Position numbers and translations under genes: made by a program. Below the pieces are notes generated by a model that did no database searches, had not been told where the DNA came from, and saw nothing but the letters and a program-made list of their open reading frames with translations. Positions 1,929 through 26,473 of a stretch of 29,151 bases of DNA are shown in pieces. Within the stretch, counting starts at the first letter, position 1. Every line of letters begins with the position of its first letter. Origin of the DNA: an uncultured archaeon (GTDB lineage Archaea; Iainarchaeota; Iainarchaeia; Iainarchaeales; 0-14-0-20-30-16); assembly GCA_964480435.1 (NCBI GenBank), contig CAYZSS010000009.1:1-29151 (forward strand). Reading direction: 5' to 3'.

Positions 1929-2456
1929 GTGGTTTATTTGGGCTTTACAGTACAAAAAGTAAAACAAAAAGATCTTGAACAAATAAGTAAAATTATTTTG
2001 GAAAATTTTAAAGGCAAATATTATTCTCATTATCCGCAAGAAATACTAAACACTTATTTATATCCAAATACTCCTGAAAGACTAAAGGCAACAATAAAAT
2101 TGCCTAAGACCCACATGTTTGTTTTAAAAGATGGAAATAAAGTGTGTGGTTGCATTCTGATTAGATTTGATAAAAATAAAGGTAAGTCAGGTGGATATAG
2201 AATAAGAAGATTACATCTTTCTCCAGAATATTGTGGGCAGGGTTTATCTGATTTATTATTAGAAAAAGTCTATTCTTTAGTAAGAAAAAAAGGTTATAAT
2301 ACAATATATTGTGAATCTACTCCAGAGGTGGCTGAACCCTTAAAGAAAAGAGGCTGGAAAGGAAAATATAAAGATAAAGTAGTTGAAGTTAAAGATGACT
2401 TAGGAAACACTCATGTGGTAGCAGTTCCTAGATTTTTAGCATATAAAAGAATATAG
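1929..2456 (+). CDS. GNAT family N-acetyltransferase
   Basis: GTG start. The acetyl-CoA motif A is LHLSPEYCGQGLSDLLLEKV (Q-x-x-G-x-G/S pattern). The 175-aa size is typical. Confidence 0.7.
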   Translation: MVYLGFTVQKVKQKDLEQISKIILENFKGKYYSHYPQEILNTYLYPNTPERLKATIKLPKTHMFVLKDGNKVCGCILIRFDKNKGKSGGYRIRRLHLSPEYCGQGLSDLLLEKVYSLVRKKGYNTIYCESTPEVAEPLKKRGWKGKYKDKVVEVKDDLGNTHVVAVPRFLAYKRI

Positions 2457-3001: not shown

Positions 3002-3331
3002 TTATTTTTTGAACATGTCACAAAGTTTATTTTGTATTTCTATAATTTTTTCTTTTTTTAATGATCCTACTTTGTAGTTTATTCTTGATTCATTTATACT
3101 AAATAAAACAGATAACTTTGCAAAACTAATATTTTTTAAATCTCCACTTTTAAAATCATTTTGATTAAGTGAAACTGAATTTGGATCTGGGGTTATTTTG
3201 CTTGTTATTTGGCAAAGAATAATGTTTTTGTATGTATTTGCTAAAACTAGTGCAGGTCTTTTTTTTGAATCAGATGAATCTAGAAACGGGAAATTAAAAA
3301 CAACAATATCCCCTTTTATAACTCTTTCCAT
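3002..3331 (-). CDS. mazF: MazF/PemK-family endoribonuclease toxin
   Basis: The N-terminus is GDIVVFNFPF..SKKRPALVLAN, followed by ILCQITSK. This is the classic PemK/MazF signature. The ATG at 3329-3331 overlaps the upstream gene by 16 nt. Confidence 0.8.
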   Translation of the reverse strand: MERVIKGDIVVFNFPFLDSSDSKKRPALVLANTYKNIILCQITSKITPDPNSVSLNQNDFKSGDLKNISFAKLSVLFSINESRINYKVGSLKKEKIIEIQNKLCDMFKK

Positions 3332-3984
3332 GCTTTTTCATCCTCTTTTGATAGCCAGTTTTCTGCTAGTACTTCTTCACTTGCTAACATACATTCTAAA
3401 GAATTAGTTATTTTTGTTTTATTTAAGGGTCTTAATTCTAATTTGTAAATGCCCCATGTGTGTTTATCTGAATTAGTTATTTTTTCTTGCATAATAAACC
3501 CTTGTTTTTCACAAAATCTTTCTGAAGCAGTATTTAATGCTGGTTTATGAAGAATGCCTACATATAGGGAATTTATGTTTTCTGTTTTCATGTCTTTAAA
3601 AAGGTTTTTCATAAATAATTTGCCAATTCCTAATTGGGCTTTGTTTGGTATTATTGCAATTTGGTCACCAAAAACATATGGCTCTTTTTTACTTGCAATT
3701 GTTTTTACAAGTTGATCTTCGTGATTTAATTTTCCATTTTTTAATAACTTTTGTAAATTTTTATTATCATAACACATTAGAAAACCAATTATTTGGTTGT
3801 TTTCTTCAGCAACATAAAAAAAGTCAGATAATTTTATTCTTAGCCTATATTCTTGTGGTGTTAAAACATAAACTAAAAATCCTGTTTTTTGTGGATTATT
3901 ATAATTAATTTTTATTTGGTTTGCGATTTCGCAAATTTGGTTTAAATCTTTAGGTTTGGCTTGTCTTATTATTATGTTGATCAC
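3316..3984 (-). CDS. GNAT acetyltransferase fused to a MazE-like C-terminal toxin-binding tail
   Basis: GTG start. The GNAT core has motif A in IIPNKAQLGIGKLFMKNL. The last 24 aa, MLASEEVLAENWLSKEDEKAWKEL (nt 3319-3390), resemble the Trp/acidic C-terminus of E. coli MazE (..ENIDWGEPKDKEVW). The stop overlaps the mazF start. Confidence 0.65.
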   Translation of the reverse strand: MINIIIRQAKPKDLNQICEIANQIKINYNNPQKTGFLVYVLTPQEYRLRIKLSDFFYVAEENNQIIGFLMCYDNKNLQKLLKNGKLNHEDQLVKTIASKKEPYVFGDQIAIIPNKAQLGIGKLFMKNLFKDMKTENINSLYVGILHKPALNTASERFCEKQGFIMQEKITNSDKHTWGIYKLELRPLNKTKITNSLECMLASEEVLAENWLSKEDEKAWKEL

Positions 3985-4000
3985 TCAAAATATTTTAATT

Positions 4001-4567
4001 TTACTCTTTTTCTTTATTGATTAGTTTCATTTGCATTTTGTATAACTCTTCAGTCATTAAAACATCACCTAAAGAAGAATGTGCGTTTGTTGGCTGTTTA
4101 TTACAAAGTTTTGTGTAACAACTCCCTAAACTTATACTTTCTATTTCTAATACTCCTGCATCTTTTAGGAATAAAGCATTATACATTGTATCTTTTCTGT
4201 GAAAATGTATTTCGTCACTAAAACGGATATTTGCTTTTCTCTTAAATAAACAATCTAGAAATCTAACATCAAATTCGACATTATGCCCTAAAACGTATGG
4301 TCTTTTTTTGAAATTTTCTCTAATAAAAGAAAGAATTTGTTTTATTGCAATTGTCTCATCAACACCATACTGTGCCAAATAATCCATTGAAATGCCTGTA
4401 AGTCTCATTGCTTGTGGTTCGTAAATTAATTCTCTCTGAGGAGTTATAAAAATTGTTCTGTGCTCATCTTTTCCAAAAACTTTTAGGGTAATGGAGCAGA
4501 TAGCATTTGATTCTGGTTTTAATCCACCTGTTTCTATATCTAAAACTAAAGTATTCACAAAAGCCAC
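4001..4567 (-). CDS. DEDDh 3'-5' exonuclease (DnaQ / RNase T-like)
   Basis: Exo I is LVLDIETGG, Exo II is LGHNVEFDVRFL and Exo III is HSSLGDVLMTEELY (H-x4-D). The start may instead be the GTG at 4556-4558, which follows an AGGTGG Shine-Dalgarno-like sequence. Confidence 0.8.
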   Translation of the reverse strand: MAFVNTLVLDIETGGLKPESNAICSITLKVFGKDEHRTIFITPQRELIYEPQAMRLTGISMDYLAQYGVDETIAIKQILSFIRENFKKRPYVLGHNVEFDVRFLDCLFKRKANIRFSDEIHFHRKDTMYNALFLKDAGVLEIESISLGSCYTKLCNKQPTNAHSSLGDVLMTEELYKMQMKLINKEKE

Positions 4568-4582
4568 CTTTGTTTTGTGAAT

Positions 4583-4633
4583 CTGTTTGATATTTTGTGT
4601 AACATAAATTCAAATTTATTCATATCATATCAC
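4583..4633 (-). promoter_or_regulatory. Conserved upstream element, copy A (TTCACAAAA-type boxes), upstream of the DEDDh exonuclease gene
   Basis: About 51 nt align with 19724-19784 with few mismatches. On the minus strand it reads ..TTTGAATTTATGTTACACAAAATATCAAACAGATTCACAAAAC... Confidence 0.5.
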
Positions 4634-5286
4634 TTCTTTAATTGTGCTGTTTTAAATGGGCGTTTTCCAACTAAGGTTTTATCTTTTGAATTGGATGTTA
4701 ACCAAATACCCATTCCGTATTGTATAAATCCACCAAAGATTACTAATCTCTCTGGACTTTCCAAAACACATTTTTTTGTTGGAATCCACAAATTGATTTC
4801 TGTGTTATATTTTTTGTTTTTATGTTTTCCTAAAAGTTTTTCAAAAAATTTAGGATACTCTTTTATTGTTGCAATTGTTCCATATTTTGGAATCTCTTGT
4901 TTTTCTAAAGGGATAGTGATTTCTGCTTCTATTATCCCATTTTTTCTGACTAATTTGCCATTTTTTATTTTTGGGTAATGTAATATATATCCCTTGCTTT
5001 TTGTAGGGAAAACAATAATTGTAGATGTTCTGTGCCAGTAGTTATCTAAATCTAATAATGTTTTTTTGTCTATAGTGGTTTTCATTATAGAAAAAAATAA
5101 TCCTGCGGATGGAACAAAACTGTTTTGTTTTTGGCAATATTCTAAAGTTTCTTCTAATGATAGAGATAAAGCTGATCCCCACGAGGAATCTGAATTTTTT
5201 CCTCTTTCCATTTCTTCACTTAAGTTAAGACAGGAGTAATTTTTTTTTATATTTGGATAAAATTCAGATATTTTTTTTAATTCCAT
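4630..5286 (-). CDS. Hypothetical protein (218 aa), no recognisable motif
   Basis: This is a long ORF in an operon-like string. Its ATG lies 4 nt after the stop of the upstream bPH gene. I recognise no catalytic signature. Confidence 0.55.
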   Translation of the reverse strand: MELKKISEFYPNIKKNYSCLNLSEEMERGKNSDSSWGSALSLSLEETLEYCQKQNSFVPSAGLFFSIMKTTIDKKTLLDLDNYWHRTSTIIVFPTKSKGYILHYPKIKNGKLVRKNGIIEAEITIPLEKQEIPKYGTIATIKEYPKFFEKLLGKHKNKKYNTEINLWIPTKKCVLESPERLVIFGGFIQYGMGIWLTSNSKDKTLVGKRPFKTAQLKK

Positions 5287-5290
5287 GAAG

Positions 5291-5797
5291 TCACTTCATT
5301 TCTTTGAAAATAATCTCTTGTACTTCTTCTGGGTTTTTTAATGCAATAAGGTACCCTTCTGCGCCTTTAACATTTTTTCTGGACATCTGGCCTGCTAAGG
5401 TTTGAATGTATATTGAGCCAACTTTAAAAATACTTTCCAAAAAAGATCTTGATACTGCTAAATCAGAAATTTTACTGTATGGTATTGAAGTGATTGAATA
5501 ACCAAGAACTCCTTTTTTTATTGCAATTCTTTTATTTGTAATCCAGTAATACTCTTTTGAATACATTAAGTATATTATTAAAAAAATAATTAATAAAATC
5601 AATACCGCTGTGGCAATGAAAAGAGCAACTAAATAATTATATGCTATTGTTGAATCTTTTGCAGAAATATTAAAAGCGATAAATAATGTAATTAATAAAA
5701 GCCCAAATATTGCGGGTACTAATTGTATGCCTATCATTGCTTTTTTTGGTTTTATTTCTTTTATTATTTTTTCATCTTTTTGTAAAATAAATTCCAT
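5291..5797 (-). CDS. Membrane protein with a bacterial-type PH domain (bPH_2 / YdbS-YdbT-like)
   Basis: Two TM helices are followed by YWITNKRIAIKKGVLG..IPYSKISDLAVSRSFLESIFKVGSIYIQT. I chose the internal ATG at 5795-5797 (MEFILQKDEK) because the track's longer start overlaps cls. Confidence 0.65.
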   Translation of the reverse strand: MEFILQKDEKIIKEIKPKKAMIGIQLVPAIFGLLLITLFIAFNISAKDSTIAYNYLVALFIATAVLILLIIFLIIYLMYSKEYYWITNKRIAIKKGVLGYSITSIPYSKISDLAVSRSFLESIFKVGSIYIQTLAGQMSRKNVKGAEGYLIALKNPEEVQEIIFKEMK

Positions 5798-5817
5798 AAC
5801 ATCACATCCAGTATTTT

Positions 5818-7248
5818 TTATAAAAAAGGATAAAACAATCTGCATAAAGATTCTTTTACTTTCATCCATAGTGGTCTTTTTTTGAATTCCTTTAAAATAA
5901 TCTCTTTACTGTTTTTAAAGTCTTTGTTAAATAAATCTAACAATTCGTTTTCTTTTTTCTTGTTACCAAAAATAAAAGCGTTTAATTCAAAATCTTGGAA
6001 AAATCCTCTTGGTTCTATATTGCAACTTCCAATGGAAATAATATCTTTTGTTAATATTACTTTTCCATGTGCAAATCCATTGTAATAGTAAAGTTTAATT
6101 CCTGCTCTAAGGAGTCTGGTAAAATTAGTTCTTGCTGCTGACCAAACAAAAGGAGTATCCCCTGTTTTTGGAAGAATAACTCTCACATCAATTCCTTTCA
6201 TTGCAGCTGTTGTTAGTGCTGTAATAATTGCTTTATCTGGAGTAAAATATGGCACCATGATATACAAATAATCCTTTGCAGCAGTAATAATATTGAAATA
6301 TGCAAAATAAATATTTGGGGTATTATAATCTGGTCCTGATGCAACAATATTTACTAGTTCATCTCCGCCGTGACTTATCTTTGGAAAATAATCTTTTCCT
6401 GATATTAATTGTTTTGTAAGGAAAAACCACATTGAAAGAAAAGCAGTTTGCATTGTGTATATTGCGCTACCTTCAATTTTAATATGGACGTCGTGCCATT
6501 CTCCTAAGTTTGCATTTCCGTGGATATATTCATCACCAATGTTTAACCCGCCTGTGAACCCCACCTTGCCATCAATAATAATGATTTTTCTATGTGTTCT
6601 ATAATTTATTTTGCTTTTTAATATTGAAATATGCCACGGAAATAGAGCTTTAATTTCAATCCCCGCATTTTTCAAATCTTTTTTGTCTTTTCCTGCTATT
6701 TGGGTTATTATTCCATCATAGATTACTTTTACTTCTACTCCTTCTTTTGCTTTTTCAATTAATATTTCTTTTATTTCTTTTCCTATTTCTGATTCAAATT
6801 TTAAAATGTGCATTTCTATGTGGATGTGGTGTTTAGCTTTTTTTAGTTCTTTAATTATCTCAGAAAATCCATTTTTTCCATCAATTAATATTTTTGTTTT
6901 GTTGTTTGTGGAATAAGGAAACCCTCCTTTTAATGCTGTATTTAGTACTCCTGCTATTCTATCATTTTTTTTATAATATGGGGATTTTAATACTTCTGCC
7001 AGTTTTTTTAGTAATGTTTCTCTTTTTCTTCTGTAATTTTTTTTGAACATTTTTAGCCTAAACTTTGCAATATTAAAACGTTTTCCTACATAGAAATAGA
7101 TAATTAATCCAAGTAAAGGTAAGAAAATAATGATTAAAAGCCAAAGTATGGTTGATGCTGGGTCCCGGTTTTCTAAAAGAATAACAAGAATAATGATTGG
7201 AGTGTAAATAATAAAATATAATAAAACGAAGAGGCTATAAAAATCCAT
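5818..7248 (-). CDS. cls: Cardiolipin synthase (PLD superfamily, two HKD motifs)
   Basis: There are N-terminal TM helices. The first HKD motif is HRKIIIIDGKVGFTGGLNIGDEY and the second is HGKVILTKDIISIGSCNIEPRGF. Confidence 0.85.
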   Translation of the reverse strand: MDFYSLFVLLYFIIYTPIIILVILLENRDPASTILWLLIIIFLPLLGLIIYFYVGKRFNIAKFRLKMFKKNYRRKRETLLKKLAEVLKSPYYKKNDRIAGVLNTALKGGFPYSTNNKTKILIDGKNGFSEIIKELKKAKHHIHIEMHILKFESEIGKEIKEILIEKAKEGVEVKVIYDGIITQIAGKDKKDLKNAGIEIKALFPWHISILKSKINYRTHRKIIIIDGKVGFTGGLNIGDEYIHGNANLGEWHDVHIKIEGSAIYTMQTAFLSMWFFLTKQLISGKDYFPKISHGGDELVNIVASGPDYNTPNIYFAYFNIITAAKDYLYIMVPYFTPDKAIITALTTAAMKGIDVRVILPKTGDTPFVWSAARTNFTRLLRAGIKLYYYNGFAHGKVILTKDIISIGSCNIEPRGFFQDFELNAFIFGNKKKENELLDLFNKDFKNSKEIILKEFKKRPLWMKVKESLCRLFYPFL

Positions 7249-7301
7249 AATTATATAATCTTTATTAAAGTATATATTTATTATCGTATAATGTGATTAA
7301 T

Positions 7302-8768
7302 ATGGACCCAAAAGCAGTAAAATTTCTTTTTAATATTAACAAAAATGAAATATCTTTGTCTAATCTTGCCTTGACAACTGATCTGAAATATGATCAGGCA
7401 ATGCGAATTATGTTCGAATTGGAAAAAGAAGAGTATATCACGGTTAGAAAAGAAACAAACAATAAATATCGGTTAGGGGAATTTGGTAAAGTCTATTGTA
7501 AAGAGCAATTTCCTGAAGAACTTATTTTTAATACAATAAAAAAAGAGATAACTTTAGTAGAATTTAATAAAATTCTTGGACCTAAAAGTGGGTTTGTGCT
7601 TGGTTATGGGCGTAAAAATGGGTATATTACCTTAGTGTTAGGTGGAGAACAGAGATTGAAAATATCAAAAAAGATTGATCCTGAAAAATTTAAGAAATAT
7701 AGGTTGCTGCTTAGAAAATTGCGAGAGGGGGATAATTTACAAGCAGAAGAAATTGAACTTTTAAAAACTTATCCAAAACTTGTTGATTTGGGTACTAAAA
7801 CAGAATACTACATAACAAAGAAAAAAGATGTAAAAGTAGGGGATATTTCTAAAGAAGACCCTAAAGAATTAGGTAAGGAGATTGCTGTTCTTAAAAAAGA
7901 AAATTTAAAGCAGGACGATGTAAAATTCAAAAAGTATGATGTAGTTGCTAATGTTGCTCCATATAATGGTGGGAAAAAACAAGGATATCTGAACTTTTTA
8001 GATTTAATGAAACAAAAAATGGTTGATCTTGGATTTCAGGAAATGGAAACTCCATTAATAACTCCCGAATTCTATAACTTTGATGTATTGTACCAACCCC
8101 AGAATCATCCTGCAAGAACCTGGACTGATACTTATAACTTAGATACAAAACATAGAGCAAAACTTGATGATGGGATAGTAAAAAAAGTAAAAGAAGCCCA
8201 TGAAACGGGTGGAGTATCAAAATCAAAAGGTTGGGGTGGAACTTGGGATTTAGATATTGCAAAAAAATTAATGCCTGCTGCACACGGTACTGCGGGAAGT
8301 GCAAGAAAAATGACTGAGGGCGTTAAAGAGGGAAAATACTTCGCTCTTGCAAGGTGCTATAGGCCTGATGTTGTTGATGCTACTCATTTATGTGAATTTA
8401 ACCAACTAGAGGGCTTTGTAATTGGAGATAATATCTCTTTTAGAAACTTATTGGGGCTATTAGATACTTTTGCAAAAGAAGTTGCAGGTGCAAAAGAAAC
8501 AATGTTTTTGCCAGATTATTACCCTTTTACTGAACCTTCTGTACAACTATCTGCAAAACACCCTAAATTAGGATGGGTTGAGTTTGGTGGTGCAGGAATA
8601 TTTAGACCAGAGATTACAGAAACCCTTGGAATAAAAGGTAGAGTAATCGCTTGGGGTTTAGGAATAGACAGGCTTGCAATGTTTAATTTGGGAATAAAAG
8701 ATATAAGGGAATTGTTTTCAAATAATCTTGATTTAATTAGGAAACAAAAAACTATAACTAAAATTTGA
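7302..8768 (+). CDS. pheS: Phenylalanine--tRNA ligase alpha subunit, archaeal type
   Basis: There is a long N-terminal wHTH-like region. Class II motif 2 is CYRPDVVDATHLCEFNQLEGF and motif 3 is GAGIFRPEI..GLGIDRLAM. I prefer the ATG at 7302 over the track's GTG at 7293. Confidence 0.9.
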   Translation: MDPKAVKFLFNINKNEISLSNLALTTDLKYDQAMRIMFELEKEEYITVRKETNNKYRLGEFGKVYCKEQFPEELIFNTIKKEITLVEFNKILGPKSGFVLGYGRKNGYITLVLGGEQRLKISKKIDPEKFKKYRLLLRKLREGDNLQAEEIELLKTYPKLVDLGTKTEYYITKKKDVKVGDISKEDPKELGKEIAVLKKENLKQDDVKFKKYDVVANVAPYNGGKKQGYLNFLDLMKQKMVDLGFQEMETPLITPEFYNFDVLYQPQNHPARTWTDTYNLDTKHRAKLDDGIVKKVKEAHETGGVSKSKGWGGTWDLDIAKKLMPAAHGTAGSARKMTEGVKEGKYFALARCYRPDVVDATHLCEFNQLEGFVIGDNISFRNLLGLLDTFAKEVAGAKETMFLPDYYPFTEPSVQLSAKHPKLGWVEFGGAGIFRPEITETLGIKGRVIAWGLGIDRLAMFNLGIKDIRELFSNNLDLIRKQKTITKI

Positions 8769-8813: not shown

Positions 8814-9305
8814 ATGGGTACAAATATAAAAATTAGAAGGTTTAAAAAAACAGATATTATTAAATTACACAATCTTTCTAAAAAAATTCTTAATATTACT
8901 CTTAGTAATTGTTATACAAAGAAGCAAGTTGATGTATTCCTAAAAAGAAATAATCGTAAGAGTATTCTCCAAAAGTCAAAAGAGAGAATTTATTTTGTAG
9001 CAGAAGACAAAAAATCAGAAAAGATTATTGGGTCAATTGCAATCAAAGATAATGAAATTACTAGTTTTGGGGTGGATCCTACTTTTCAACGATTGGGTAT
9101 TGGTAAGTTGTTATTTAATAAAATCAAAGAGTTAGCAATTAAAAATGGGTATAAGAAATTATTTGTATCTTCCAGTATCTTTGGTGTTGATATATATAAG
9201 AAATTAGGTTTTAGAGTTCTTAAAAAAAGACAACAATTAGCATATGGTGTTGAGTATATAGATACTTGGATGGAATACAAAATAAATAAAAATATAAAAG
9301 AATAA
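8814..9305 (+). CDS. GNAT family N-acetyltransferase
   Basis: Motif A is FGVDPTFQRLGIGKLLFNKI. The protein is 163 aa. Confidence 0.7.
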   Translation: MGTNIKIRRFKKTDIIKLHNLSKKILNITLSNCYTKKQVDVFLKRNNRKSILQKSKERIYFVAEDKKSEKIIGSIAIKDNEITSFGVDPTFQRLGIGKLLFNKIKELAIKNGYKKLFVSSSIFGVDIYKKLGFRVLKKRQQLAYGVEYIDTWMEYKINKNIKE

Positions 9306-9314
9306 GGTATTATT

Positions 9315-9719
9315 TTATTGTGATTTTCCTTTAAGTCTTGTTACTCTAATACTAGCATCTAATTTAATATATTCTACTTCTGTTCCTGGTTGTAAATCAG
9401 CTGAATTAATATCAGTAGGAATATTTGTTTCTATTGTTTCATAACTTTGTAAGTCCATTATTTGTATTGAGTCTCCAAGATTTGCAACTACTTGTGCATT
9501 TCCAGTGAAAATCTTTGGTTTCATTACGTCATCACCAGTGCTAGAAAGTAGATTTAATTTTTTGTCTGTGAATAGTGCAATAGCAACAATTCTTGCCTTT
9601 GCTGCACCATGTTTTCCTGGTTTGGATTTCTCGATACTTGCAATTTTACAAGGTATATCTTCAATAATAATAATGTTTCCAATTTTTAAACTATTTACCT
9701 TTTCGTATTCAAATTCCAT
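9315..9719 (-). CDS. eif5a: Translation initiation factor 5A (aIF5A)
   Basis: The hypusine loop is SKPGKHGAAKARI, within an OB-fold-length protein. I chose the start at ATG 9717-9719 (MEFEYEKV); the track's 14 extra residues look spurious. Confidence 0.9.
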   Translation of the reverse strand: MEFEYEKVNSLKIGNIIIIEDIPCKIASIEKSKPGKHGAAKARIVAIALFTDKKLNLLSSTGDDVMKPKIFTGNAQVVANLGDSIQIMDLQSYETIETNIPTDINSADLQPGTEVEYIKLDASIRVTRLKGKSQ

Positions 9720-9794
9720 GATAATCACTAATAAGTTTAATCTTATATAATTTAAAAACAAAAGGTATATATAGGTTTATGGTGTGTTTTTTAT

Positions 9795-15228: not shown

Positions 15229-15373
15229 TTTTTCATAAATTAAATAGAGATTTAATCTTTTCTTTTGTTTGTTTTAATTTGCATTTTTTTTAAATTAGAA
15301 AAAGGGGAAAAGCATATATATTATTTGTTTGTAGAGTATATGTCTTTTATGGTAAGGAGGGGTATTATGAAAA
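15229..15373 (+). promoter_or_regulatory. Duplicated promoter/5'UTR cassette, copy 1
   Basis: Nt 15229-15362 are identical base-for-base to 17635-17768 (134 nt). A 1-nt G indel follows, then 11 more identical nt that include the ATG. The cassette contains A/T-rich TATA-like boxes (ttttttttaaatta, catatatatta) and an AAGGAGG Shine-Dalgarno sequence. Confidence 0.8.
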
Positions 15374-17634: not shown

Positions 17635-17780
17635 TTTTTCATAAATTAAATAGAGATTTAATCTTTTCTTTTGTTTGTTTTAATTTGCATTTTTTTTAAA
17701 TTAGAAAAAGGGGAAAAGCATATATATTATTTGTTTGTAGAGTATATGTCTTTTATGGTAAGGAGGGGGTATTATGAAAA
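17635..17780 (+). promoter_or_regulatory. Duplicated promoter/5'UTR cassette, copy 2
   Basis: See copy 1. This copy precedes an unrelated lipoprotein gene. Confidence 0.8.
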
Positions 17781-18289
17781 CTATTTTGCCTATTGTAATT
17801 GCAATGCTTGCGGTTATGGTTGTTTTAAGTGGCTGTGTTGGAAGTCAGGTGGCCCCGGGCACAAAAATTGATTCTAAAGATTCTTTTATGAGTGCATTAA
17901 ACTCAGGTATAGAGTTAAAATGTGCTGTTGATATTAACGGGATGGCTGCAACAGTTTATTTTACAAAAGATAAATATATGGCAATAGCAAATACTCCGCA
18001 ACAAGAAAAAGTTTATACTATTATTGATCTTACAGAAAAAATGATATATATTTGGTCAGATATAGATGTATTTACTCCTGAACAATTAGATGCAATGCAG
18101 ATTACTGCTGAACCAGGAAAAAAGATTGGTGCAAAAATGTCTGTAGCAGAACAGCCTTCTGAAGAGCTAACTGCTGATGATTATGAACCAGATTGGATTT
18201 GTGAAACAAGTGTAGAACCAATAGTAGTCCCAAGTGGCTATCAATTTATTGATATGACTGGTATGATGTCTGCACAAGGAACTAACTAA
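17774..18289 (+). CDS. Small lipoprotein, paralog A1
   Basis: The signal peptide and lipobox are MLAVMVVLSGC. By manual alignment, 152 of 171 residues are identical to the ORF at 25958-26473. Confidence 0.75.
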   Translation: MKTILPIVIAMLAVMVVLSGCVGSQVAPGTKIDSKDSFMSALNSGIELKCAVDINGMAATVYFTKDKYMAIANTPQQEKVYTIIDLTEKMIYIWSDIDVFTPEQLDAMQITAEPGKKIGAKMSVAEQPSEELTADDYEPDWICETSVEPIVVPSGYQFIDMTGMMSAQGTN

Positions 18290-19858: not shown

Positions 19859-20236
19859 TTATAATTCAAAAAGTAGTTTTAACCTGTCTTTTGTTTGATC
19901 TAATTTATTTTTTGAAATTGTTCCGATTTTTTGTTTAATTATATTTTTGTTGGCGGTTATCAAAAATCCGCAATTAATTGTGCTTTCTTTGATTAAATCG
20001 CCGATTATTAAATCTTTTTTTGTTAGTTTTATGTCATATGGCAAGGAATGTCCAATAGAAGTAATTTTTAATAATATTAAATCAGGGTATTTATTGTTGA
20101 ATTGACTATTACTTATTACTAGTGCTGGCCTTAGTTTGGTGTTGGTTTGATCTGAAAAAGGAACTGGCAGAACAATTATATCCCCTTGATTAAAAATTGA
20201 ATAGTTCTTTTGCATCATCCCAGTTCTCCCCGGCAT
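19859..20236 (-). CDS. mazF: MazF/PemK-family endoribonuclease toxin (second copy)
   Basis: The signature is GDIIVLPVPFSDQTNTKLRPALVISN followed by ILLKITS. The start may instead be Met7 or Met8 (20218 or 20215). It overlaps the antitoxin gene's 3' end. Confidence 0.8.
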   Translation of the reverse strand: MPGRTGMMQKNYSIFNQGDIIVLPVPFSDQTNTKLRPALVISNSQFNNKYPDLILLKITSIGHSLPYDIKLTKKDLIIGDLIKESTINCGFLITANKNIIKQKIGTISKNKLDQTKDRLKLLFEL

Positions 20237-20387
20237 AGTTTATTGCTTCAGTTTTAATTTTATTGTCTTCTAATTCTCTTAATTTAATAATTGCTGCGTT
20301 TCTCATAACTTCTGTCCATTTTATTTCGCTGTGTTTTTTCATAAGGCTATAATATTGGTCTGGTATCGATAAAGTTACATTAGTCAT
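20190..20387 (-). CDS. RHH/CopG-like antitoxin with Trp/acidic C-terminal tail
   Basis: I chose the ATG at 20385-20387, which follows GGTGA. The N-terminus is MTNVTLSIPDQYYSLMKKHSEIKWTEVMRNAAIIKL (beta-strand plus helix RHH pattern). The C-terminus is AGENWDDAKELFNF. The track's longer ORF overlaps the TrmB-family regulator gene's 3' end and looks spurious. Confidence 0.6.
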   Translation of the reverse strand: MTNVTLSIPDQYYSLMKKHSEIKWTEVMRNAAIIKLRELEDNKIKTEAINYAGENWDDAKELFNF

Positions 20388-20463
20388 ATAATCACCAAAT
20401 AATCTACTTAAATAAGTATAATAAGGGTTAACTATAAAAATATAGTGTTTTTGTTGCTTGTTT

Positions 20464-21168
20464 TTATTTGAGGTTTTCCCAAAGAAGCTCAAAAGTGTCC
20501 TTAAATCCAGCATAAATATCAGGGTCTTTTATTTTTACCACAAGTATGTTTCCTTTGAGTTTTTGTATTACTACTTTATTATCAAATATAAACATTGTGG
20601 CATAATTTGTGTTTTTTGAAGGCAAATACTTTATTGAAACATTTTTTTTGTTATGAAACTCAGGCATATTCATGTTCTTATTTGCAATTATTTTTATGCT
20701 GTTTACTTTTAATATTTCTTTTAGCCAACCTTGGCTATATTTTAATGGCTCTCTTATTAGCCCTGTCACATTTAACATTCTAATTTCTTTGGATTTTATT
20801 AGTTCTCTATTTATGTTTTTTAACCCTTGAACCCCGTCATAAATTTCAACCATACTATCTGGTATTTTGTGTTCTGTTTTTGTTGCTTTTATTTTTGTAA
20901 TAATTTCTTGTGCAATAATTTCTTTTTGTTTTATATTAGACAGAAAATTTTCAGGGTCAGTTATGGAATATAATCTTTTTCCATTTTCTGTTATGCAATT
21001 AATTACTCCTTTGTTAATTAAGGCTTGTAAGGTATTGTATGTTGCTGTTCTGTTACCTGTGATCTTTTTTGTTACTTCTGAAGCACTTATCTTTTGTGTA
21101 GAAAAAATGGTATTGTAAATTTTTGCTTCTCTTTTGGTAAAGCCTAAATCTTGTAATTGTTCTAACAT
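20464..21168 (-). CDS. TrmB-family transcriptional regulator
   Basis: The N-terminal wHTH LQDLGFTKREAKIYNTIFSTQKISASEVTKKITGNRTATYNTLQALINKGVI is characteristic of TrmB. Confidence 0.75.
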   Translation of the reverse strand: MLEQLQDLGFTKREAKIYNTIFSTQKISASEVTKKITGNRTATYNTLQALINKGVINCITENGKRLYSITDPENFLSNIKQKEIIAQEIITKIKATKTEHKIPDSMVEIYDGVQGLKNINRELIKSKEIRMLNVTGLIREPLKYSQGWLKEILKVNSIKIIANKNMNMPEFHNKKNVSIKYLPSKNTNYATMFIFDNKVVIQKLKGNILVVKIKDPDIYAGFKDTFELLWENLK

Positions 21169-25957: not shown

Positions 25958-26473
25958 ATGAAAGCTATTTTGCCGATTGTAATTGCAATGCTTGCAGTTA
26001 TGGTTGTTTTAAGTGGTTGTGTTGGTAGCCAGGTGGCACCAGGCACAAAAATAGATTCTAAAGATTCTTTTATTGCAGCAGTTAATTCTGGTGTGGAATT
26101 AAAATGCCTGGTTGATATTAATGGAATGGCGGCAACAGTTTATTTTACTAAAGATAAATACCTTGCGGTAGCAAGCACAACACAAGCAGAAAAGGTTTAT
26201 ACTATTATTGATCTTACTGAAAAAATGATATATATTTGGTCAGATATAGATGTATTTACTCCTGAACAATTGGTGGCAATGCAGATTACTGCTGAACCAG
26301 GTAAGAAAATAGGTGCCAAAATGTCTGTAGCAGAACAGCCTTCTGAAGAAATAACTGCTGACGATTATAAACCAGAATGGATTTGTGAAACTAGTGTAGA
26401 GCCAATTGTGGCACCAAGCGGTTATCAGTTTATTGATATGACTGATTTGATGTCTGGACAAGGAACTAACTAA
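25958..26473 (+). CDS. Small lipoprotein, paralog A2
   Basis: It has the same signal peptide and lipobox as A1, and 19 of 171 residues differ. Its upstream region is unrelated to the A1 cassette. Confidence 0.75.
   Translation: MKAILPIVIAMLAVMVVLSGCVGSQVAPGTKIDSKDSFIAAVNSGVELKCLVDINGMAATVYFTKDKYLAVASTTQAEKVYTIIDLTEKMIYIWSDIDVFTPEQLVAMQITAEPGKKIGAKMSVAEQPSEEITADDYKPEWICETSVEPIVAPSGYQFIDMTDLMSGQGTN

Follow-up and report, generated by a model that had tools for sequence, protein, structure and literature searches.

The window analysed here, a stretch of 29,151 nucleotides from an uncultured archaeon of the Iainarchaeota (assembly GCA_964480435.1, contig CAYZSS010000009.1), carries on its minus strand a mazF/pemK toxin gene (3331..3002; 109 aa, intact; PF02452 PemK, expect value (E) 6.8e-14) whose upstream partner is, on homology grounds, a chimera. 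This 222-aa protein harbors a complete GNAT acetyltransferase in place of the antitoxin DNA-binding domain, followed by a MazE-like toxin-binding tail. The open reading frame (ORF) of the fusion (3984..3316, minus strand) has a GTG start at 3984 and a stop codon at 3316-3318. The GNAT domain comprises residues 1-184 (3433..3984), as delimited by Pfam (PF00583/PF13508), AlphaFold2 (AF2), Foldseek, and the ends of homologous proteins, while the MazE-derived linker and toxin-binding tail occupy residues 185-222 (3319..3432; RPLNKTKITNSLECMLASEEVLAENWLSKEDEKAWKEL), assigned by homology to AbrB-type antitoxins. The limits of the GNAT and antitoxin homologies meet in the hexanucleotide GAATTA (3433..3438), encoding Glu183-Leu184. 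The fusion is a rare, real rearrangement of a well-known toxin–antitoxin (TA) system and not a system of a new kind. It probably arose through a lineage-specific in-frame deletion that joined the remainder of a mazE gene to a GNAT gene, leaving a tail that would neutralize MazF and abolishing autoregulation.

When the fusion protein is compared by tblastn with all fetched loci, residues 1-184 match only GNAT genes, in loci without mazF, and residues 181-222 match only antitoxin 3′ ends directly upstream of MazF relatives. This bipartite homology, together with the lack of a match to PF04014 (the AbrB DNA-binding domain) in the 222-aa protein, bears out the proposal of an earlier sequence-only reading of the window that an enzyme domain has replaced the antitoxin DNA-binding domain. 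The same reading had assigned a MazE-like character to the last 24 aa. Residues 181-222 are indeed 67% identical over 42 aa to the 3′ ends of cognate antitoxin genes (L006 and L011; tblastn E 4e-13), with all near-invariant residues present, and the antitoxin-derived part extends beyond those 24 aa to ~38–40 aa, including the linker as well as the tail. In the canonical relative L006, PF04014 covers residues 12-54 and ends with ..VELRP, where the antitoxin-derived part of the window protein begins; in the alignment, only the final ELRP of the AbrB domain survives in the latter, and no frame of the fusion region has room for a hidden AbrB domain. AF2 renders the tail as a lone low-confidence helix (predicted local distance difference test (pLDDT) 62-68, residues 189-220), a model typical of a conditionally folded tail.

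The tail family was examined at 80 genome loci, each with a relative of MazF (38-54% identity); the source organisms include DPANN archaea, Methanosarcinales, cyanobacteria, and Bacteroidota. At 78 of these loci, the upstream ORF stops 15 nt into mazF, such that the two genes overlap by 16 nt, and ends with [AS]SE..L...W....E[ED].AW..L. In the consensus of the 76 usable loci, the two tryptophans and the terminal leucine are conserved at 100%, and Glu5 and Leu8 at 97%; the window tail has all of these residues. The N-terminal parts of the cognate antitoxins, which are encoded by ORFs of 63-122 aa, vary among AbrB-like, ribbon–helix–helix (RHH)-like, and DUF2281-like. MazF is known to pair with antitoxins of divergent folds (PMC3879964), and partner counts have been published (PMC2701414). 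When metagenomes are scanned for the DNA pattern of the tail end, 120 further occurrences are obtained, in which the 16-nt overlap is kept, the longest upstream open frame is 132 codons, and the typical antitoxin measures 72-86 aa. The nearest MazF relative (55% identity) is accompanied by an ordinary 75-aa RHH antitoxin. Judged by its sequence, the fused tail is a genuine MazF-cognate antitoxin tail. The 222-aa partner is the sole large fusion among the ~200 related loci (80 genome and 120 metagenome), none of which bears an enzyme domain on the cognate antitoxin. Across related loci, the tail and the overlap are widespread, while the fusion is confined to one lineage and the linkage to an exonuclease gene does not recur. 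No description of a GNAT-MazE fusion was found in the literature, in agreement with the earlier reading, which knew of none.

A separate observation concerns metagenome loci that keep the tail end and the first 5–6 codons of mazF (MERFV..), after which mazF is truncated or replaced (L160, L167, L214, L104, L175/L215, L207, L201, L166, L187, L117, L209, L138, and L176). In some of them, the antitoxin is also reduced to 24-52 aa. Such loci represent antitoxins left without a toxin and the scars of cassettes that have decayed.

The position of the junction is narrowly defined. In the protein alignment, the window sequence reads ..WGIYKLEL up to the junction and RPLNKTKITNSLECMLASEE.. beyond it, and is aligned with ..DRVELRPLKKEKMSEALLCMLASEK.. 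of AbrB-type antitoxins. DNA homology to most canonical mazE loci starts at window position 3438, the first base of codon Glu183 (GAATTAAGACCC), with a few alignments reaching slightly further upstream. The 6-nt GAATTA (Glu-Leu) is common to both parents, being found at the GNAT end (..WGIYKLEL) and in the AbrB antitoxin (..RVELRPL). Because the antitoxin DNA homology starts at Glu183 and the GNAT homology runs to Leu184, the crossover is placed within GAATTA, and the common hexanucleotide points to an in-frame microhomology deletion.

Downstream of the junction, the stop codon of the antitoxin tail overlaps the start of mazF by 16 nt (3316..3331; ATGGAAAGAGTTATAA), as read directly from the sequence. 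Coordinates and Pfam agree with the earlier description of this overlap and of an exonuclease gene ending 16 nt upstream of the fusion ORF, so that three minus-strand genes lie head to tail. The mazF ATG sits within Ala-Trp codons of the fusion tail, and a GAGGA lies 10-14 nt upstream of this ATG, within K-E-D codons of the tail. This placement is consistent with translational coupling of mazF to the fusion ORF.

The GNAT half of the protein is complete. PF00583 matches residues 51-163 (E 2.6e-9; 37.8 bits vs a cutoff of 20.7), the acetyl-CoA motif Q-x-x-G-x-G is intact on reading of the sequence (Q117-L-G-I-G-K122), and AF2, run with a 73-sequence alignment, models residues 1-183 with pLDDT ~97, confirming the full GNAT domain with motif A that had been recognized initially. 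Foldseek with the fusion protein retrieves generic GNATs with a probability of 1.00, namely ArsN/phosphinothricin acetyltransferases and Ard1/RimI-type N-terminal acetyltransferases. The top 50 Foldseek PDB matches of the GNAT include no toxin of the TacT/AtaT type, a ranking of limited power since all GNATs share the fold. A single-sequence PDB search with the fusion protein gives chance matches only.

Homologs were sought by a word-indexed search of 5.8 billion proteins and an exhaustive HMMER search covering 1.84 billion cluster representatives. The former identifies seven GNAT homologs (38-57% identity, 182-201 aa), all terminating at ..WGIYKLEL(K) or equivalent, near query residue ~185. 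The latter identifies 391 GNAT relatives with a typical length of 175-200 aa (~180 aa free-standing). The C-terminal tail is absent in the best 150 of these 391, in which the match never extends beyond query residue 192. Neither mazF nor the exonuclease is found near GNAT relatives in the seven neighborhoods inspected, and the neighborhoods of GNAT homologs hold no conserved small partner gene. The GNAT-tail arrangement does not occur in any more distant genome searched. The GNAT probably keeps its original acetyltransferase job and acts as a carrier of the tail.

Two side observations concern this GNAT family. P0154 (222 aa), which lacks a MazE tail, is a member fused after residue ~144 to a C-terminal fragment resembling a GspE/PilB-type secretion ATPase, again either a rare chimera or an artifact. 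Free-standing homologs of the GNAT also lie near TA- or defense-type genes, AbiEii in L083 and Fic in L087 (contexts L083/L084 and L087/L088), and the family may have a tendency to occupy variable regions that receive TA cassettes.

The toxin belongs to the MazF/PemK family by its profile match, scoring 52.4 bits against PF02452 (cutoff 23.1), with 268 homologs at E<=1e-5. Its AF2 model (pLDDT 90.1), with the SH3-like barrel fold of MazF/Kid/CcdB, has as top Foldseek PDB matches the MazF proteins of S. aureus, M. tuberculosis, and B. subtilis (template modeling (TM) score 0.74-0.82, probability 1.00), and the matches include the entries 8ZWS and 7DU5, with bound antitoxin fragments. All family-invariant residues are kept, including R25 and T43; R25-P26 and T43-S44, of the catalytic RP and ITS motifs, are 100% conserved in the family, and S. 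aureus MazF has RP and IT(G) at the aligned positions. A single-sequence PDB search with MazF gives no match, and the family profile and fold searches are informative instead.

The proposed origin of the module starts from a free-standing GNAT gene that was followed immediately by a canonical mazEF cassette of the AbrB type. Two GAATTA microhomologies would have bounded a deletion in which the GNAT stop codon, the intergenic promoter/operator region, and roughly 47 codons from the start of mazE were lost, the last of these coding for the swapped-hairpin AbrB domain that serves DNA binding and dimerization. The remaining 38 mazE codons, for the linker and the MazF-binding tail, would thereby have been left in frame with the GNAT gene. 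The fusion protein would be expressed from the GNAT gene transcript, possibly a longer one starting upstream of the exonuclease gene, and mazF would be translated by coupling via the conserved 16-nt overlap. The Trp-anchored acidic tail is proposed to bind the MazF dimer and block its RNA-binding groove, making the GNAT-tail protein the antitoxin; the disappearance of the AbrB domain would also have ended transcriptional autoregulation. As long as mazF is intact, a deletion would be viable only if the tail continued to be expressed, which applies the logic of addiction to deletions. The antitoxin C-terminal region suffices for neutralization in MazEF and CcdAB, and MazE Trp73 fills a pocket on MazF (PMC3879964); in addition, a 13-residue peptide neutralizes E. 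coli MazF in vivo (PMC12557383). By analogy, the fused tail most likely still binds and neutralizes its MazF.

Several observations weigh against a deletion-born fusion that serves as a working antitoxin. Neither an unfused ancestor nor a sister lineage came to light, the nearest MazF being 55% and the nearest GNAT 57% identical, such that the deletion is a reconstruction from sequence; the search for such an ancestor, or for a second GNAT-tail protein, took in the 5.8-billion and 1.84-billion searches, the contexts of the GNAT homologs and nearest MazF relatives, and the 80 genome and 120 metagenome loci. In E. coli, the SamF peptide was no substitute for mazE on the chromosome (PMC12557383), so in some cases a tail by itself does not suffice. 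A promoter and terminator scan with a sigma-70 model, which is the wrong model for an archaeon, is uninformative, with 12 sites vs 11 expected (background level) and no terminators. The remaining points concern the toxin. The profile score of the window MazF is the lowest of 120 family members (129.9 vs a median of 171.8), and the protein exceeds the divergence of typical pairs with the same tail identity by 7–10 percentage points. In the L092 variant, 2.5 kb contain only two single-nucleotide polymorphisms (SNPs; window 3315 and 3014), both nonsynonymous in mazF and resulting in K6R, at a family-invariant lysine, and M106I. On the basis of these substitutions the toxin may be attenuated, and the SNPs hint at relaxed or diversifying selection on it (n=2).

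Such features of the toxin, along with the many metagenome remnants of cassettes with truncated mazF that mark decay as common, would fit a decaying locus in which the antitoxin was crippled by the deletion, MazF was attenuated or inactivated, and tail and mazF persist as neutral debris that is being lost, the protein functioning simply as a GNAT with a useless extension. This explanation is unlikely. The mazF gene is interrupted by neither a stop codon nor a frameshift and has retained all family-invariant residues, its fold is confidently assigned by AF2 and Foldseek, and the tail agrees with the consensus wherever the latter is conserved. The main deviations of MazF (loss of the IRPNR segment; SRI-YK) are common to its AbrB-linked DPANN subclade rather than private to it, and the in-frame junction is what selection for continued neutralization predicts. 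The notion of MazF as a decaying pseudogene was downgraded when the deviations underlying its lowest score turned out to be subclade-wide; the divergence is better read as clade identity, with perhaps mild relaxation, than as decay. The sequence-only reading had looked in a different direction, toward an enzyme–antitoxin with a new function. According to this proposal, the GNAT could be a sensor, a second effector, or a modifier of MazF, and the exonuclease could process the fragments made by MazF; the GNAT might, for instance, acetylate MazF or couple the stability of the antitoxin to acetyl-CoA or to a substrate. An intact GNAT motif tethered to a MazF-docking peptide would raise the local concentration, and the three genes are co-directional with 16-nt spacing. 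However, the fusion occurs in a single sampled lineage, the best 150 GNAT relatives are tailless, the ~200 cognate antitoxins carry no enzyme domain, and neither GNAT nor exonuclease homologs lie near any of the 80 MazF loci. Moreover, the GNAT resembles generic small-molecule or N-terminal acetyltransferases rather than TacT/AtaT, and GNAT and MazF match no PADLOC defense-system model. The comparisons lend the proposal no support, and it is highly improbable.

Two further explanations question whether the long protein matters or exists. The working antitoxin could be a small peptide initiated within the frame, for example at Met165 (58 aa) or Met199 (24 aa), with the long ORF being incidental. 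In-frame ATG codons do occur at residues 165 and 199, and very short peptides can neutralize MazF (PMC12557383). Nevertheless, Met199 is not preceded by a Shine–Dalgarno-like sequence and Met165 only by a weak AAGGG, and there is no stop between GNAT and tail, such that the full-length fusion is made whenever the GNAT is translated; an internally initiated antitoxin is thus very unlikely. Metagenome assemblies are known to hold odd chimeras (P0154, and P0009 on a 554-bp contig), so that the fusion might be thought to stem from a chimeric contig or from a frameshift error that joined a GNAT gene to an independent gene for a small antitoxin. Against this, the fusion and its neighbors are 100% identical in DNA over 1.5-2.5 kb in five further assemblies (ENA, Logan, and JGI), from different samples and pipelines. 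In addition, no more than 14 codons lie between the end of the GNAT and the core of the tail, and because of this short distance no full antitoxin gene can be hidden by a frameshift. An artifact, which the earlier reading had named as a possible source of error, is essentially excluded, the sole rival of which this can be said.

A second odd fusion is P0009, the only match to the tail extension in the 5.8-billion-protein search. P0009 (L001; ENA contig k141_8967117, 554 bp, gene 66-509, mazF start at 494) has a ParB N-terminal domain (PF02195, residues 25-104) that passes, at a common Gly-Leu-Lys, into the second half of an AbrB antitoxin with its tail (MLASEEVLSKNWLSKEDEKAWKDL), and an overlapping mazF follows; the final 24 residues agree with the window tail at 21/24 positions. 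Known from a single short contig, it may be either an assembly chimera or a MazE tail captured independently and in frame. A general rule by which MazF addiction leads to recurrent in-frame capture of MazE tails by unrelated expressed genes, with P0009 as a possible second case, is unlikely. If tail capture does occur, a cell could come to depend on continued expression of the host gene, and in its strongest version the result would be a metabolically coupled antitoxin, the abundance or stability of which tracks the regulation of the GNAT.

If the fusion neutralizes MazF, a ~38-residue C-terminal region of MazE would suffice as a chromosomal antitoxin on an unrelated enzyme, without DNA binding or autoregulation. 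Addiction could likewise shape genome rearrangement, with only in-frame junctions being tolerated when a deletion enters an antitoxin gene. There is also a consequence for TA surveys. The MazF survey in PMC3879964 required an upstream ORF of 40-90 aa, and filters for small upstream ORFs would call the window mazF an orphan toxin. The significance is that of a single-lineage event within a very well-known system, with a function inferred from sequence.

The exonuclease gene (4567..4001, minus strand) encodes a 188-aa protein with the motifs DIETGG, HNVEFD, and H-x4-D (PF00929 RNase_T, E 9.8e-9; PADLOC DEDDh model). Six genes of the same direction are packed closely together here (7248..3002), and the position of the exonuclease gene next to the fusion is in keeping with such packing. 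Its membership in the module, as initially envisaged, finds no backing. No homolog is present in the 80 MazF loci or the seven GNAT loci, tblastn matches being limited to loci of the same population, and with no homolog near any MazF or GNAT relative, a functional tie of the exonuclease to the module lacks support. It is a plausible operon neighbor, possibly co-transcribed. PADLOC returns no match for the GNAT, MazF, or the 218-aa upstream protein and only generic DEDDh matches for the exonuclease.

A second MazF locus lies at 19859-20513 (minus strand), directly downstream of a 234-aa ORF (20464-21168). It encodes a MazF-like toxin of 125 aa (PF02452, E 2e-14) and an upstream overlapping ORF (20190-20513, listed as 107 aa) with a weak VapB/RHH-like match, the true start of which is probably an internal Met (MTNVTLSIPDQYY..). 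The two window MazF proteins are paralogs with 33% identity. The fusion tail had been said to echo the tail of this second RHH antitoxin, a resemblance that does not hold, as the two tails yield no local alignment.

The window has a G+C content of 30%, and the best relatives of its TA genes come from metagenome-assembled genomes of Woesearchaeota, Pacearchaeota, and Nanoarchaeia. Archaeal-type genes include an aIF5A-like ORF (9315-9761) and a long phenylalanyl-tRNA synthetase (PheRS) alpha (7293-8768). Together, these features make an archaeon of the DPANN type the most likely source. Three separate GNAT-family genes are found within 8 kb, at 1929-2456 (plus strand), 3316-3984 (minus strand, the fusion), and 8814-9305 (plus strand), the first of which adjoins a gene for a YbaK/tRNA-editing domain (2520-2984) that is convergent with mazF. 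A HerA-like ATPase (DUF87, E 4e-32) followed by a PDDEXK_15 nuclease (E 2e-21), at 100-1902 on the plus strand, may constitute a repair- or defense-type HerA–nuclease pair. Elsewhere, two ORFs share identical first 33 residues (MFVLICIFFKLEKGEKHIYYLFVEYMSFMVRRG; DNA 15265-15365 vs 17671-17770), which suggests a duplicated upstream segment, and two putative lipoproteins of 171 aa are close paralogs (17774-18289 vs 25958-26473).

The window module shares several features with the canonical AbrB-type MazE-MazF systems (PemI/PemK and Kis/Kid). Both have a MazF/PemK fold with the conserved Arg and Thr, a homologous Trp/acidic C-terminal tail, and an antitoxin frame placed upstream with a 16-nt overlap. 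In contrast to canonical MazE, the window protein has a 184-aa GNAT instead of the PF04014 domain and is 222 aa long, whereas the cognate antitoxins measure 63-122 aa. Operator binding, autoregulation, and conditional cooperativity are presumably absent from the window module.

The GNAT toxins TacT, AtaT, KacT, and ItaT also combine a GNAT fold with a TA locus. In these systems, however, the GNAT is the toxin and is preceded by an RHH/DUF1778 antitoxin gene, whereas the window GNAT occupies the antitoxin position, has a DEDDh exonuclease gene upstream, and derives from a family of free-standing genes. The window protein is probably not a GNAT toxin, and it lacks the AbrB domain that defines MazE.

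Antitoxins without a DNA-binding domain are found in three-component systems with a dedicated third regulator gene, such as PaaA2 (paaR2-paaA2-parE2) and epsilon (omega-epsilon-zeta). As in these systems, the neutralizing element of the window module would be a toxin-binding peptide or domain only, with regulation residing elsewhere. PaaA2 and epsilon are stand-alone small proteins, whereas the window peptide is carried on an unrelated enzyme and no regulator gene is apparent. A further parallel is provided by engineered or minimal MazF inhibitors, namely MazE C-terminal fragments and SamF (PMC12557383; PDB 8ZWS and 7DU5), in which a short peptide without a folded antitoxin domain binds MazF. 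While those are laboratory constructs, the window protein is a natural chromosomal fusion kept in a wild population.

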